Positions 2,555 to 23,194 of a DNA stretch of 64,000 nt are shown here, piece by piece. The notes beneath the pieces are model-generated. The model was not told the origin of the DNA. It saw only the letters and a list, made by a program, of their open reading frames with translations, and made no database searches. The DNA lies in the sequence record OR525698.1, one strand, 5' to 3'. How positions within the stretch are numbered: position 1 is the first letter of the stretch; every line of letters begins with the position of its first letter. A program made the position numbers and the translations under genes. This stretch comes from Escherichia phage vB-Eco-KMB43.

Positions 2555-4417
2555 TTACATGTGCTTAACGCGGTTTACCATCTCGGAGTGTTTCCCGTGG
2601 TTAAATGGACGCAGATCAACAGATCCAAGATATCCACTAACGCGACGGATAACATTCATCTTTTCCAGATTGTCATTGCCGCAATCAGGGCAAACAAAAC
2701 CAGACTCGGTCGCTCTCATTTCCTTATTAGATCCGCATACATGACATACATCAGAAGGAGTATTAACACCGAAGTAGTGCAATTTATCCATTGCATAGTC
2801 TACTACAGTTTCAAGACCTTTCAGGTTGTTTTTCATGTCTGGGAACTCAACATAAGAGATCATGCCACCGGACGCCAGCCAGTGATAATCTTTCTCAAAG
2901 TCGATTTTCTCAAACGGTGTGACTTTCCGGTCTACGTCAAGGTGGAATGAGTTGGTGTACCAGTCTTTATCGGTAGCACCCTTAACAATACCAAATTGCT
3001 CTCGGTCCAGTCGATTAAATCGATAGCAAAGGCTCTCGGCTGGAGTACCGTAAAGACTAAACCCAAGTCCGGTTTCGTCCTTCCATTTTTCAGTATAATG
3101 ACGCAAGATCTTAAGAATATGTTTACCGTATCGCTGCGCATCTTCCGAATCAAACGGATGAACACCAAACAGGACGCTCAATACCTCATGTAAACCAATA
3201 TATCCAAGAGAGATACTAGCGCGACCATCTTTCAACACTTCCAAAATTTCATCGTTTTGATGAATACGGAAAAACGCACCTTCGGTATACAGTACAGGAG
3301 CAACATTGGCTTTAGCACCTTTTAAAGCGTCTACGCGACTCATGAGCGCATCAAAGCAAATAGGCATACGATTAGCTAGCTCTTGTTCGAATAGCTCAAT
3401 TCTGCGCATTACAGACGCTTTACCAGCACGACGCGCGGCAATAAGGGCAATACGCGGAAGATTCAGAGTCACAACACCTAAGTTATTACGTCCGTCTAAT
3501 ACTTCCTCGCCTTTCTCATTATGCCACACACCCAGGAAGCTACGACAACCCATCGGGCTAACCGGAACACTAGATCCGGTGATACTACGGTTATTCTTCG
3601 CAGAGATATAATCAGGGTAAAGACGCTTACTAGAACATTCCAATGCAAGTTGCTTAATGTCGTAGTTCGGATCTTCCGGTTTAAGGTTTAATCCTTCTTC
3701 TAAGAACATCACCAGCTTAGGAAACACCGGAGTGATACCATCTTTACCTAAACCTTTAGTTCGAACGTTCAGGATCGCTTTCTGAATCAGTTTTTCTTCC
3801 CAGCTAGTCCCCATACCAAATGTTAAAGTCACAAAAGGTGTTTGACCGTTGGTGGAGAACAAAGTGTTGATTTCATATTCCAACGCTTGATACCCGTCTA
3901 GCGTTTCTTTTTCTGTCTTCTCTTGTGCATAGAGAGTATCCGCTTTGATTCCGTAGGTTTCGGCATCAGCAAGGTGTTTATGATATGTTTTCTCAACGTA
4001 TGGCGCTAAAACCTGATCGATGTTTGCAATTGTGGTCCCGCCATATTGATGACTTGCCACCTGTGCGATAATTTGAGCGGTTACAGCACAAGCAACGCCG
4101 ATTGATTTCGGACTTTCGATTTGTGCGCTACCCAATTTAAAACCATTCTCTAACATGTCTTTGAGGTTAACAAGACAGCAGTTAGTAAACGGCATAGCGG
4201 GTGCATAATCCATATCATGATAATGAATGTCACCGTCTACATGCGCTTTATAGATGTGCTCAGGTAACACGGTTTTAGCAATCTGTTTAGACACAGCACC
4301 AGCAATCAGATCTCGACGTGTCGGGAATGTTCGCGCGTCTTTGTTCGCGTTCTCTTTGCTTACTTCGTTTTCTTTACCCGTTGCGATCTCTGTAATGTCT
4401 TTGATTAGTTTTTCCAT
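2555..4417 (-). CDS. nrdD: anaerobic ribonucleoside-triphosphate reductase (glycyl radical enzyme)
   Basis: C-terminal RVSGY glycyl-radical motif plus CxxC zinc ribbon; N-terminus closely resembles T4 NrdD as recalled; uninterrupted 620 aa ORF. Confidence 0.95.
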   Translation of the reverse strand: MEKLIKDITEIATGKENEVSKENANKDARTFPTRRDLIAGAVSKQIAKTVLPEHIYKAHVDGDIHYHDMDYAPAMPFTNCCLVNLKDMLENGFKLGSAQIESPKSIGVACAVTAQIIAQVASHQYGGTTIANIDQVLAPYVEKTYHKHLADAETYGIKADTLYAQEKTEKETLDGYQALEYEINTLFSTNGQTPFVTLTFGMGTSWEEKLIQKAILNVRTKGLGKDGITPVFPKLVMFLEEGLNLKPEDPNYDIKQLALECSSKRLYPDYISAKNNRSITGSSVPVSPMGCRSFLGVWHNEKGEEVLDGRNNLGVVTLNLPRIALIAARRAGKASVMRRIELFEQELANRMPICFDALMSRVDALKGAKANVAPVLYTEGAFFRIHQNDEILEVLKDGRASISLGYIGLHEVLSVLFGVHPFDSEDAQRYGKHILKILRHYTEKWKDETGLGFSLYGTPAESLCYRFNRLDREQFGIVKGATDKDWYTNSFHLDVDRKVTPFEKIDFEKDYHWLASGGMISYVEFPDMKNNLKGLETVVDYAMDKLHYFGVNTPSDVCHVCGSNKEMRATESGFVCPDCGNDNLEKMNVIRRVSGYLGSVDLRPFNHGKHSEMVNRVKHM

Positions 4418-6245: not shown

Positions 6246-6830
6246 TCAAGCGTTAAATGACTTTTGGATCTCTTTCAGTTCAGCTACTTTATCGGCGCTA
6301 TATTTTGCTTGATGTTCCATGCGCTTAAGCTCACCTTTGATATAGGTTTCTAGCTTAGGTTTATTCTCAATCAGAAAATCTTTCAAGTCATCGGCATTTT
6401 TAAAGTATAGCTGATTGTCAAAGCTAAAATCTTCCAGCGTCAATGATACCAAAGAAGACTTCGCAAACAAGTTAATCAGACCTTCCAGAGATTCTTCTTT
6501 CTTAACTGGTTTCATTTCTTCAAACTGCTTTTTAGTGATGCGTTTAAAGTATTTGCGCTCGTTTGCAGCAATCAGAACAGATGCACCTTCATACCCATGA
6601 GTTTCTACCAGATACACACGCCCCATCGCATCAACAGTGAGAACTTTAAAGCCGTTACAAAGCACGTCATACAAGAACTTATTATGTTGCGGACATCGTT
6701 TGATAAATTCTGCGGCTGTTTCTGCACTACGGAAAGTGTAATAACGACCTCGTTCAAAAACAGCATCATTTGAAGACTTAGCCGGATACAATTTATACGT
6801 TTTCTGTACCATAATATAATCCTCTATCAT
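6246..6830 (-). CDS. hypothetical protein, paralog of 5011..6189 (one repeat domain plus helical tail); probable start 6812
   Basis: Shares NERKYFKRI(S/T)K and GFKVL motifs with neighbour; internal ATG at 6812 (MVQKTYK). Confidence 0.6.
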   Translation of the reverse strand: MIEDYIMVQKTYKLYPAKSSNDAVFERGRYYTFRSAETAAEFIKRCPQHNKFLYDVLCNGFKVLTVDAMGRVYLVETHGYEGASVLIAANERKYFKRITKKQFEEMKPVKKEESLEGLINLFAKSSLVSLTLEDFSFDNQLYFKNADDLKDFLIENKPKLETYIKGELKRMEHQAKYSADKVAELKEIQKSFNA

Positions 6831-7660: not shown

Positions 7661-7954
7661 TTAACCATTAATCTTGTTTTTGACTACAAAGGATCGGAAC
7701 TCATCAAAACCACCGATATAATCACCGTCATAGAAAATCTGCGGCATGGTGGCAATAACTTCTACCCCTGCGCGATCCTGAATGTCGGCAATGATAGAAT
7801 CAATCTTTACCGGACGACCGTTTTCGTCTACACCATCATTAACCGGAATGTAGATGTAAGGGATCTTACGCGATTCACAAAGGCGCTTTGCATTCTGGCA
7901 ATACTTACAGTTGTAACCTTCAAAACCAAAAATTTCTACCATGTTATACCTCAT
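7661..7954 (-). CDS. nrdC: glutaredoxin/thioredoxin (RNR electron donor)
   Basis: CKYCQNAKRL active-site CxxC and C-terminal MPQIFYDGDYIGGFDE resemble T4 NrdC as recalled. Confidence 0.85.
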   Translation of the reverse strand: MRYNMVEIFGFEGYNCKYCQNAKRLCESRKIPYIYIPVNDGVDENGRPVKIDSIIADIQDRAGVEVIATMPQIFYDGDYIGGFDEFRSFVVKNKING

Positions 7955-8699
7955 TCAGTTCTATATCAAGTTCATTTTCAATAATATAGGCATTAACTGC
8001 CCGTGCCGCATCATCTTCTGTGTCAAATCTTCCTATATACACACCGCGAACTTTAGCACCGTAATTACCTTGTTTTGGTACTTTGTAAACGTATCTATGA
8101 CGGGAACTTGCTGCTTTTTGGAGCTTCTTGCCATATTCAGACTTTGCATATTCTATATCATCAATCTCGTTTATACAAGACCTATCACCAAAATGTTTCA
8201 ACGCGGCAAGATTATATGCATACGCCGCGCCGATCTCGGAGGGAAAATATCCTAAATGTATCGACTTCCCATCCAACATTATTGCACCAGTCCAATAACC
8301 TTTATTCTTATTAAACGACACACCTTTATACTTCGAATATGTTTTGCATTTGGTCTTGCTCATATTCATATTATTTTGTTTGCGTGTCGTCTCTCTAAGG
8401 TTTTCAATGCGGCTATTATAACGATCTCGGTCTTTATGATCTATATACTTAGGACAATGACCATGAAACATATGATAGATAACACGGTGCATACGTTCGT
8501 ATCGCTCGCCAGTCCATACAATACGATACCCATCGGGGGTATCACTTCCAGCTAATCCGTTTATAACACCTTTTCGGTGCGGGTGAATCTTCCACCTAAG
8601 AAAACCATCATCATAATAAAACCGTGAATGATATAAATCATATAAACGTTTATCTTCTGGAGTCTTGTGTATAACCTCATATTTTAACATTGGTGACAT
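7944..8699 (-). CDS. free-standing HNH homing endonuclease with two AP2-like DNA-binding domains
   Basis: HNH core (IDHKDRDRYNSRIENLRETTRKQN) plus two YKGVS/YxYKV...GxYxGRF AP2-type repeats. Confidence 0.8.
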   Translation of the reverse strand: MSPMLKYEVIHKTPEDKRLYDLYHSRFYYDDGFLRWKIHPHRKGVINGLAGSDTPDGYRIVWTGERYERMHRVIYHMFHGHCPKYIDHKDRDRYNSRIENLRETTRKQNNMNMSKTKCKTYSKYKGVSFNKNKGYWTGAIMLDGKSIHLGYFPSEIGAAYAYNLAALKHFGDRSCINEIDDIEYAKSEYGKKLQKAASSRHRYVYKVPKQGNYGAKVRGVYIGRFDTEDDAARAVNAYIIENELDIELNEV

Positions 8700-9492
8700 A
8701 AACTTCCTTAGTATCGGATTTTTTACCCCCGCTACGATCTAAACAATATGTTTTATCCAGTTCAACAACAGAAACATCATTACGTTCGATAAAATCGAGC
8801 AAATGGTTGTTAACTTTCCCTTTGTGGTGAGTAACATTGCTTAATCCAAACTTAGCACCGCTAGACATTAATGATTCTATCCACATGTAGAATTTAATCT
8901 CTTCTTCTTCACTCCAGAACTTATTATATTCTGCCGACGTGATCCAATATGGCGGATCAAGGAAAACGAAATCACCTGGCAAGATCTCGATCTCGTCATA
9001 GCGACCAGACGTAAAACTGATTCGACCGTCTTTGTTTTCTTCCTTAAAATTCAGGACACGCTCTACCGCGTTTTCGTTAAAAGTCCGGCGACCAAAATTA
9101 GCATTAAATTCGCCCTTCCGGTTATGGCGGTTAATGTTGCTAAAACTATGCTGAATCAACACAAACAGCGATAGCGGATCTGGATTCTCATTATACTTCT
9201 TACGGAATGCCATGTAAGCGTCTTTATCTTCGCGAGACAAACCATTTTCGGCAATAATCCGCTTGATCGTAGAAACCGGATCAGGACACTCGTCAATGGC
9301 CTTGTAAGCGTCAATTAAGCGGTGATCATAGTCATTAGCCAGCACATCCCCTTCGACGTACAGAGACACGCTCAAGCCGCCACAAAAGGCATCAACAAAG
9401 CGGTTATAGTGCTTAGGGAAATACTTACTAACACCGGGCAATAACTTTTCCTTATTGCCAGTATAGGGAATTAAACCTAATGCTTTCTTCAT
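8677..9492 (-). CDS. dam: DNA adenine methyltransferase (Dam-type, N6-A)
   Basis: YTGNK, FVDAFCGGLSV (SAM site) and DPPY motifs; near-collinear with T4 Dam as recalled. Confidence 0.9.
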   Translation of the reverse strand: MKKALGLIPYTGNKEKLLPGVSKYFPKHYNRFVDAFCGGLSVSLYVEGDVLANDYDHRLIDAYKAIDECPDPVSTIKRIIAENGLSREDKDAYMAFRKKYNENPDPLSLFVLIQHSFSNINRHNRKGEFNANFGRRTFNENAVERVLNFKEENKDGRISFTSGRYDEIEILPGDFVFLDPPYWITSAEYNKFWSEEEEIKFYMWIESLMSSGAKFGLSNVTHHKGKVNNHLLDFIERNDVSVVELDKTYCLDRSGGKKSDTKEVYVTNVKI

Positions 9493-20727: not shown

Positions 20728-21426
20728 CTAACCACGGGTATAGTGTTCCAGAACAACTGTCAGATGAATATATTCTAATAAATCTTTCCAAAAGTCAACA
20801 TCTGGTTCTTCCGGCATACCGTTTTTCTTTGCCTCTTCACGAGCGAGTTTAACACGCTCGTAGAGATCTTTCAATTCTTCCCGCACATTATCAAAGGTTC
20901 TTTCTCCTAACTTACACGCTAAAATAGAAGAACGTCGCGCGAGCGGGAATTGTAGATCACCTGTCTGATAGATTTCAAGTAGCTGATAACCAACACGCAG
21001 AGCATGAGAAAGATCTTTCCAGTTACTGAAATACTTTTCAGATTTGGCTACCTGCTTTTTGAGATAGCCAGACAAACCCCACATACCAACATGATAGAAT
21101 TTATCTCGATGTGTTCGGATGTATTCCCATTCTCTGGAGGATTCAATCAACATGTTACTAGGAGCGTGCACCATGTCAATAGCGCCGATATCGCCTTTAC
21201 ATGCCAGATTGATAAACCGTTTTAGACTGAACATATTAACATCAATATCGTCTTTGGTGTTCTTGATACCTTGACCGCTAGTGCTTTGGTCATAGTGTTC
21301 TTTCATCGATCCTAAGATAATTTCTTTCGCAGTCGGAACAAAGATACCACGATAATCTTTATCGGAATTTTCAGTATCAAGGCCGTATAAGTGAGATCCG
21401 AAGACCATTTTAACCATTGTATGCAT
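20728..21426 (-). CDS. nucleotidyltransferase-fold protein (pol-beta/MNT-like GS...D.D motif) with C-terminal helical domain
   Basis: MVFGSHLYGLDTENSDKDYRGIFV fits the GS-x(9-13)-D-x-[DE] minimal nucleotidyltransferase signature. Confidence 0.55.
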   Translation of the reverse strand: MHTMVKMVFGSHLYGLDTENSDKDYRGIFVPTAKEIILGSMKEHYDQSTSGQGIKNTKDDIDVNMFSLKRFINLACKGDIGAIDMVHAPSNMLIESSREWEYIRTHRDKFYHVGMWGLSGYLKKQVAKSEKYFSNWKDLSHALRVGYQLLEIYQTGDLQFPLARRSSILACKLGERTFDNVREELKDLYERVKLAREEAKKNGMPEEPDVDFWKDLLEYIHLTVVLEHYTRG

Positions 21427-21470
21427 AATTAAACCCTCAGTTGATTAAGAGATTGCATCATATCATCATA

Positions 21471-21504
21471 AAACGAAAAAGCCAACCCTTTTCGGATTGG
21501 CTTG
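21471..21504 (-). terminator. rho-independent terminator after the grcA-like gene
   Basis: GCCAATCC-gaaaa-GGGTTGGC hairpin followed by a T-run on the minus strand. Confidence 0.65.
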
Positions 21505-21512
21505 ATGAAAAA

Positions 21513-21929
21513 TTAGAGAGATTCGGTAAAGGTACGAGCGATAACATCACGTTGCTGGTCTGGAGTCAGACTATTGAAGCGCACTGCGTAACCAGAAACG
21601 CGAATTGTAAGCTGCGGGTACTTCTCAGGATGTTCAACAGCGTCCAGCAACATTTCTCGTAACAATACGTTAACATTCAAATGCTGACCACCTTCGACAA
21701 CCGGAGCACCATTATCTACAATCACCGGACGGAAGCTAGTTGTGTGCAGTGCCAGCGAATCGACGTCTTCTGCGGTGATCACATGGTCTTCTGCGAAAGT
21801 TTTACTAACAATTACTTTAGCGCCGATCAGTGCTTTCGGTTCGGATACCAGAATCATAGGCGCGAAGTGTCCACCAATAATAGTACCTTTATGTTCACCT
21901 TTCATGATTTGAATTGCTTTAAATTCCAT
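21513..21929 (-). CDS. grcA: autonomous glycyl radical cofactor (GrcA/YfiD-like)
   Basis: C-terminal ~60 aa ([12 protein letters not shown]...[36 protein letters not shown]) near-identical to E. coli GrcA as recalled. Confidence 0.8.
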
Positions 21930-21939
21930 AATTCACCTC

Positions 21940-22065
21940 TTATAGATCAGGACGTTCGTCATTAATTTTACCAACCAAAACACCATAGAGTTTATCAGGT
22001 TGGACTTTACGATTCTTATTGATTTTAGCACGGAATCGACGAGCTACGCTATCTTTATTTTTCAT
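21940..22065 (-). CDS. possible small basic protein (41 aa), not in the ORF track
   Basis: ATG overlaps upstream stop (TAATG); stop overlaps the grcA RBS; translation MKNKDSVARRFRAKINKNRK... Confidence 0.3.
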   Translation of the reverse strand: MKNKDSVARRFRAKINKNRKVQPDKLYGVLVGKINDERPDL

Positions 22066-22618: not shown

Positions 22619-23194
22619 TTATTTTGGATCTGGGAAATTCAATAGAGCATATTCTCCATAAAATTTCCTAGCTGCATTATCATAAGCGATTGCAGCTTCG
22701 ATTTCTGTGTCATATTGTCCAAGAACATGTCTTTGTAGGTTGACCATTATACTAGCTCTCCATTTCTTACGCAAATCCTTCCTGTTACACTTACTAACAC
22801 CCTTATACACACTAGAAAACTTTTTAGACTTCTTCTTTCTATTATGTTGATTTTGCGCGTCGGTTGCCTCCCTAAGATTTGGAGGATTGTTATTAGCAGG
22901 ATTACCGTCAATATGATCAATTAATCTAACTTGCGTCCCATGTTCTAGAAACCAAACAACCCTATGCACGAATAAATGAACTCTAGGAAGACCGTCATCT
23001 CTACTATGCCAAAATCGAAGATGACCATCTTTATTTGTTCTGACTTTAACTAAATCGCCGTGTTTATATCTACTCCCTAATGGTCGTCCTTTGATAGCTT
23101 TACTATCGACTCTATAATATAAGATACCCTCTATATGAGCATATCTAAGTTTTATCTCGTTTTGTAGGGATTCATCCCAATATTTAAAAGCCAT
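22619..23194 (-). CDS. free-standing HNH homing endonuclease with AP2-like domain
   Basis: HNH core IDHIDGNPANNNPPNLREATDAQNQHN and AP2-type YKGVS...W.A.I segment. Confidence 0.75.
   Translation of the reverse strand: MAFKYWDESLQNEIKLRYAHIEGILYYRVDSKAIKGRPLGSRYKHGDLVKVRTNKDGHLRFWHSRDDGLPRVHLFVHRVVWFLEHGTQVRLIDHIDGNPANNNPPNLREATDAQNQHNRKKKSKKFSSVYKGVSKCNRKDLRKKWRASIMVNLQRHVLGQYDTEIEAAIAYDNAARKFYGEYALLNFPDPK

Follow-up and report, generated by a model that had tools for sequence, protein, structure and literature searches.

The window analysed here is a stretch of 64,000 nucleotides from Escherichia phage vB-Eco-KMB43 (OR525698.1), in which vs.6, a gene predicted to encode an autonomous glycyl radical cofactor of the Y06I type, lies on the minus strand at 21513-21929. 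In the list of open reading frames it comprises 138 codons and a stop, beginning with ATG and ending with TAA at 21513-21515 (minus strand), and the peptide quoted in the first-pass annotation of this DNA matches part of this ORF exactly. Reading the sequence upstream, we found a Shine-Dalgarno element, GAGGTGA (21933-21939, minus strand), 3 nt 5' of the ATG, with the stop codon of an upstream 41-aa ORF immediately 5' of it. Downstream, between vs.6 and nrdC.11, a pattern scan detected an intrinsic terminator at 21469-21503 (minus strand) with a 10-bp stem, a 5-nt loop and a U-rich tail; the stem-loop spans 21479-21503, is followed by UUUUUCGUUUU, and folds as RNA with -15.6 kcal/mol (z of -3.8 versus shuffled sequences). 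This terminator had been described as enterobacterial in style. The motif is real, but comparison with the E. coli grcA terminator returned scattered matches only, with no evident sequence similarity. Three ORFs on the opposite strand (21441-21662, 21681-21965 and 21742-21912) overlap vs.6 and were taken as non-coding. With its 138-aa ORF and its own Shine-Dalgarno element, stop codon and terminator, Vs.6 is a small protein in its own right rather than a piece of some full-length glycyl radical enzyme, and the ORF has been kept intact in more than 60 close genomes.

The protein divides into two parts. Residues 78-138 (21516-21698, minus strand) form a glycyl radical domain that mimics residues 699-759 of PflB and 67-127 of GrcA. 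Within it, the motif RVSGYAV contains Gly113 (codon at 21591-21593, minus strand), the predicted radical-bearing glycine, which corresponds to G102 of GrcA and G734 of PflB in alignments to 6owr and 1cm5 and is invariant across 62 homologs. All residues that are invariant in the glycyl radical domain of the family are kept in the window protein. Sequence comparison marks residues 1-77 (21699-21929, minus strand) as a divergent, phage-type half. Taken as a whole, vs.6 reads as an intact, expressed-looking gene with an intact radical loop.

In the window and in RB49 the gene order is vs.8, the 41-aa ORF, vs.6, nrdC.11 and, further on, regB, and in T4 it is vs.8, vs.7, vs.6, vs.5-vs.3 and regB, all on one strand in each case; the position of vs.6 downstream of vs.8 and upstream of regB is thus conserved between the window, RB49 and T4. 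The downstream neighbour nrdC.11 (20728-21426, minus strand) matches the RlaP nucleotidyltransferase family (Pfam PF10127, E 3.4e-14). The phage's own anaerobic nrdD and nrdG, to which the first-pass annotation had drawn attention, are both present in the window on the minus strand. NrdD (2555-4417; Pfam NRDD, E 2.6e-175) is itself a glycyl radical enzyme and an expected user of formate, and its residues 592-596 read RVSGY around the radical glycine, the same pentapeptide as in PFL and GrcA. NrdG, the NrdD activase (623-1126; Pfam Fer4_12, E 2.4e-43), is 99% identical to NrdG of RB49.

Relation to GrcA, PflB and the phage Vs.6 proteins

The C-terminal 61 residues of window Vs.6 are identical to E. 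coli K-12 GrcA (YfiD) at 56 of 61 positions, the five differences being R90L, T93M, E95L, K99E and E124D, and to the GrcA proteins of Salmonella, Klebsiella and Kosakonia at 58 of 61. Identity to T4 Vs.6 is 54/61, and that to PflB and TdcE of E. coli 50/61 each (82% for PflB). In PflB this stretch, residues 699-759, is the segment that is lost or disabled on cleavage by O2 and replaced by the spare part. E. coli GrcA, too, is small and stands alone, its C-terminal domain duplicating the end of PflB and keeping RVSGYAV intact. PflB, in contrast, is an enzyme of 760 aa, whereas the window protein consists of the radical domain and an unrelated leader, and ends with a GrcA-type C-terminus where PflB has TKEQQQDVITRTFTQSM.

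Residues 1-77 are far less similar to either relative. Against E. coli GrcA, 20 of 64 aligned positions are identical (approximately 31%), and the half is 11 aa longer in the phage protein; both the near-identity of the C-terminus and the divergence of the N-terminal half are therefore as first described. Against T4 Vs.6, identity is 22/58 (38%), and the window protein is 18 aa longer, the additional residues lying in the N-terminal half in blocks of approximately 12 and 5. The two phage proteins nevertheless have the N-terminal motifs KAxQIxxGxHKGTI and VSKTFxED in common, the T4 counterparts of which are KAYQILEGTHKGTI and ARIIVSKTFKED.

Profile and structure searches placed the protein close to GrcA, with matches far above chance level. 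The Pfam Gly_radical family (PF01228) matched residues 78-119 (E 1.5e-16; 61.3 bits versus a cutoff of 22.2), and phmmer retrieved the NMR structure of GrcA/YfiD, 6owr, at E 5.8e-33 and PflB at E 5.5e-27. An AlphaFold model had a pLDDT of 81.8 overall and of 84-94 over residues 91-138; in the N-terminal half, with pLDDT of about 58-89, short strands were predicted and not disorder, a further difference from E. coli GrcA. Foldseek of this model returned 6owr as the best match (E 2e-6; 92% identity over 60 columns), followed by the PflB structures 1cm5 (77% identity over 65 columns) and 1mzo, so that E. coli GrcA is the top match in both sequence and fold. The likeness is specific to GrcA rather than that of a generic glycyl radical domain, the outcome that would have spoken against the original description: the protein ends in the GrcA-diagnostic C-terminus, and GrcA is the top match in both NCBIfam and the PDB.

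The best NCBIfam match, GrcA TIGR04365, covers residues 37-138 only and scores 133.8 bits, below its cutoff of 170. E. coli GrcA scores 234, and T4 Y06I, at 151.1, is also under 170. We rejected this cutoff as a criterion of membership, since the validated T4 protein fails it too; it separates bacterial from phage subfamilies and not functions. Because its score lies below the cutoff, we file the window protein in the phage Vs.6 subfamily and not as an equivalog of bacterial-type GrcA, while by homology it would work in the same way. A search for a full-length bacterial relative found none, and the nearest 25 relatives are all of phage type. In contrast to E. coli grcA, the window gene is phage-encoded, has a phage-like composition and carries a terminator of its own.

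The window is a genome segment of a Krischvirus (the RB49 group). A stretch of 901 nt around vs.6 is 98-99.4% identical to RB49, Phi1, kaaroe, ELT4 and approximately 55 other coliphages. RB49 Vs.6 (AAQ15354.1), annotated as vs.6, has 99.3% protein identity with a single difference (V86I), 98% DNA identity and identical neighbours, and thus no difference of substance. The T4 protein Vs.6 (Y06I, NP_049730) shares this architecture, and its gene lies in the same place, between regB and vs.8. Window residues 3-138 match positions 1-121 of the 121 positions of phrog_1209, a full-length match (E 3.4e-51). Because of the 99% identity to RB49 Vs.6, the same gene order and the full-length phrog_1209 match, the window gene is assigned as the ortholog of T4 vs.6/Y06I, which is already known. 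The protein shows all the features of the phage Vs.6/Y06I family, and of the autonomous glycyl radical cofactor class, that are open to sequence and structure analysis.

A survey of phages for grcA-like genes, which had been suggested for T4-type genomes at the outset, found homologs of Vs.6 in 1580 of 50,697 phage records by tblastn. T4-like, T5-like, Aeromonas, Vibrio and jumbo Erwinia phages are represented, and 'autonomous glycyl radical cofactor' is the annotation of many of the homologs. In Klebsiella phage KPV15, vs.6 (225-586 of the extract used) is annotated as two short ORFs, with the radical domain out of frame with the N-terminal part, a frameshift that reflects either a pseudogene or a sequencing error. 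Nolan et al. (2006) had already noted vs.6 with a Gly_radical match in 6/6 T4-like genomes, including the RB49 copy (PMC1524935). Wagner et al. (2001; PMID 11444864), of the Knappe group, identified E. coli YfiD and T4 Y06I as spare parts of approximately 14 kDa that restore the activity of O2-cleaved PFL once PFL-AE installs the radical, and these are the sole two validated spare-part proteins to date in the account given by PMC8683613. As a gene, window vs.6 thus adds little, phage GrcA-like spare parts having been known since 2001 and annotated in hundreds of genomes.

Age of the GrcA-like tract

The near-identity to the host protein had been taken to indicate a fairly recent capture of a host gene, a reading that the DNA contradicts. 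We compared the conserved tract of 183 nt (window 21516-21698) with E. coli K-12 grcA, pflB and tdcE and with T4 vs.6, and found DNA identities of 74.3%, 74.3%, 73.2% and 73%, respectively. Third codon positions of the tract match those of E. coli grcA in 44% of cases, and synonymous sites are saturated, with a pS of 0.79. In 5,426 complete E. coli genomes, blastn matches to the tract ranged between 60% and 80% with none above 80%, the best being pflB at 75.9%; on these matches and the codon-level divergence, we rejected a recent capture from E. coli. Alignment to enterobacterial grcA had been proposed as a way of dating the transfer, and no recent transfer from another bacterium was seen either: in a GTDB scan with one genome per species, the closest of the best 80 of at least 577 matches (80 species) reached 79% DNA identity. 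Across bacterial genera, grcA tracts have a median DNA identity of 80%, so that the phage tract lies as far from any sampled host as one such genus lies from another. An origin from pflB instead of grcA was considered and rejected; DNA identity to the two is equal (74.3% each), and the diagnostic residues are of GrcA type.

T4 vs.6 provided a positive control for this analysis. Over the same 183 nt, T4 vs.6 (NC_000866) is 97.3% identical to E. coli K-12 grcA at the DNA level, with a dS of 0.07, and the identity extends from the EGGQHLN codons to the stop codon (positions 6558-6740 of the T4 extract and 2067-2252 of the grcA extract). GC content rises from 0.34 in the N-terminal part of the T4 gene to 0.475 in the C-terminal part, and the T4 tract is nearer to E. 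coli grcA than Citrobacter grcA is (92%). Approximately 650 records of Tequatrovirus type share the T4 state, with tracts of T4 type 95-98% identical to E. coli grcA, and in Klebsiella phages of the genus Jiaodavirus the tract is 86-89% identical to it. The T4 tract thus looks like the product of a recent host-to-phage gene conversion, and the recent-transfer test is able to detect transfer, as it does in T4 vs.6. The capture scenario of the first-pass annotation appears to be real at this locus, but in the T4-type lineage and not in the window phage: Escherichia grcA was recently copied into the 3' tract of T4 (97%) but not into that of the window (74% to E. coli). This contrast, a fresh copy of Escherichia grcA in the same tract, may be of interest for phage evolution, although it does not amount to a new kind of system.

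A module copied a short time ago from an enterobacterial host grcA would account for the protein identity of 56/61 to E. coli GrcA and 58/61 to GrcA of the Salmonella/Klebsiella type, and T4 and its relatives demonstrate that such conversion occurs at the locus. Against this stand the saturated synonymous sites and low third-position identity of the window tract, the ceilings of 80% among the E. coli genomes and of 79% among the best 80 of the at least 577 bacterial matches, and the GC content, which in window vs.6 is even (0.44 and 0.47 for the N- and C-terminal parts) with no jump of the kind seen in T4. The homology of the N-terminal half to T4 Vs.6, the T4-like gene order and the presence of vs.6 in 6/6 T4-like genomes also speak for a long-resident phage gene. 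We therefore regard a recent copy from a host as highly improbable. Comparison of the window tract with that of RB49 gave a dS of 0.12 and a dN of 0.007 (dN/dS of approximately 0.06), and this excess of synonymous over non-synonymous change argues for strong purifying selection. Because DNA divergence from the host is saturated and composition does not change along the gene, the near-identity of the C-terminus to host GrcA is likewise best read as the outcome of purifying selection on a domain constrained to match host PflB and PflA. Close resemblance to a host protein at the amino-acid level does not, in this case, testify to recent transfer; according to the DNA, this is an old phage gene that the requirement for compatibility with these two partners has kept in place.

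Proposed role in repair of pyruvate formate-lyase

Our preferred reading, to which we assign a probability of roughly 85%, is that the gene is the Krischvirus ortholog of T4 vs.6/Y06I and encodes a spare part for PFL, and that it is an old resident of T4-like genomes, its C-terminus kept by purifying selection. By analogy with Y06I and YfiD, traces of O2 that reach active host PflB would break its chain at the radical Gly734 and kill the enzyme. The phage protein would then bind the cleaved PflB through its PflB-like residues 78-138, the host activase PflA would install a new radical on the phage Gly113, and the conversion of pyruvate to acetyl-CoA and formate would resume. The phage could benefit in two ways, through a fermentative ATP supply sustained during micro-aerobic infection and through a sustained supply of formate feeding its own anaerobic dNTP synthesis. 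Class III RNRs of the E. coli/T4 type use formate as their reductant, as do most class III enzymes characterised so far, and T4 NrdD has been proposed to contain a site for it (PMC4493059). Of the function originally suggested, the GrcA-like repair of PFL is supported by homology, as the T4 ortholog Y06I performs it according to the account in PMC8683613, while the anaerobic benefit to the phage is something that we infer.

A point against this reading is that the N-terminal half differs strongly from those of both validated proteins (31-38% identity, with extra residues). The five C-terminal differences from E. coli GrcA and the TIGR04365 score below 170, a shortfall that validated T4 Y06I shares, are further counterpoints. 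In YfiD, the N-terminal region matters for activation and controls when activation occurs. This half, completely different in the phage and yet conserved within the genus, could be taken to favour a decoy that manipulates the host, either by soaking up PflA or radical equivalents or by occupying PflB, and so redirects pyruvate flux. The window protein, however, retains all the family-invariant residues of the glycyl radical domain, nothing positive speaks in favour of inhibition, and in vitro the effect of the ortholog on PFL is to restore its activity and not to block it, as described in PMC8683613; we give a decoy very little weight. The presence of nrdD and nrdG in the same genome raises the alternative that Vs.6 serves as a replacement part for the phage NrdD, or has another role in nucleotide metabolism. 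Oxygen is known to cleave NrdD, too, at its radical glycine, and the window NrdD has the same RVSGY pentapeptide around this residue. A role in nucleotide metabolism was suggested in 2006 from the Gly_radical match (PMC1524935). BLASTP of Vs.6 against the window NrdD nevertheless aligned the five residues RVSGY only (E 1.3-1.8), 50 of the 61 C-terminal residues equal those of PflB instead, and the T4 ortholog works with PFL and PFL-AE in the description of PMC8683613. We rejected a spare part for NrdD because the similarity between the two proteins does not extend past this pentapeptide; such a role appears unlikely, and nucleotide metabolism as a whole no more plausible than a decoy. Repair of host PFL remains the reading that we prefer.

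Variable vs.6 alleles and homing endonucleases in Krischvirus

Comparing the Krischvirus alleles of the window, JK32 and six metagenomic relatives, we found that the N-terminal 67 codons and the DNA upstream are 93-100% identical among all of them, and the N-terminal half is nearly invariant among Krischvirus genomes. In the variant alleles, aligned with window 21450-21740, identity drops to 40-75% from a breakpoint whose position varies between approximately nt 190 and approximately nt 340 of the gene; it stays low into the spacer between vs.6 and nrdC.11 and then returns to about 100%. In all of the variant alleles with readable downstream DNA (6/6), vs.6 and nrdC.11 are separated by a gene for a NUMOD4-HNH endonuclease of 197 or 175 aa; at this site, nothing but the terminator is present in the window and in RB49. 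Overall, approximately half of the Krischvirus-like alleles, such as those of JK32 and phiS, have both a replaced 3' tract and a downstream HNH gene, and the window has neither. Nine phage records contain the 197-aa endonuclease and nine the JK32-type tract, and a search for the donor of this replacement tract returned nothing above 80% DNA identity outside the nine Krischvirus records.

This pattern is what homing by a free-standing endonuclease, with co-conversion of the gene beside it, is expected to leave; in that case the window allele, without an endonuclease gene, would presumably be the cleavable one. More broadly, the radical module of vs.6 may be a recurrent target of recombination, overwritten by host grcA in T4-type phages and by variable tracts with NUMOD4-HNH genes in Krischvirus, with the window representing the unconverted ancestral allele and its 3' tract or terminator holding the cleavage site; we consider the arguments for and against this scenario to be evenly balanced. 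If true, the endonucleases would exploit a sequence that the phage cannot change, since mimicry of host PflB is required. The endonuclease-linked mosaicism in sister genomes could, like the T4 contrast, interest students of phage evolution, again short of a new kind of system.

Two further ORFs resembling homing endonucleases lie elsewhere in the window, both on the minus strand and both with HNH_3 and AP2 domains. One, of 251 aa (7944-8699), abuts a dam methyltransferase gene (8677-9492), and the RB49 annotation has no such ORF between nrdC and dam. The other, of 191 aa (22619-23194), lies between vs.8 and an M15 peptidase gene; JK32 and phiS-like contigs have it, whereas RB49 lacks it at that position.
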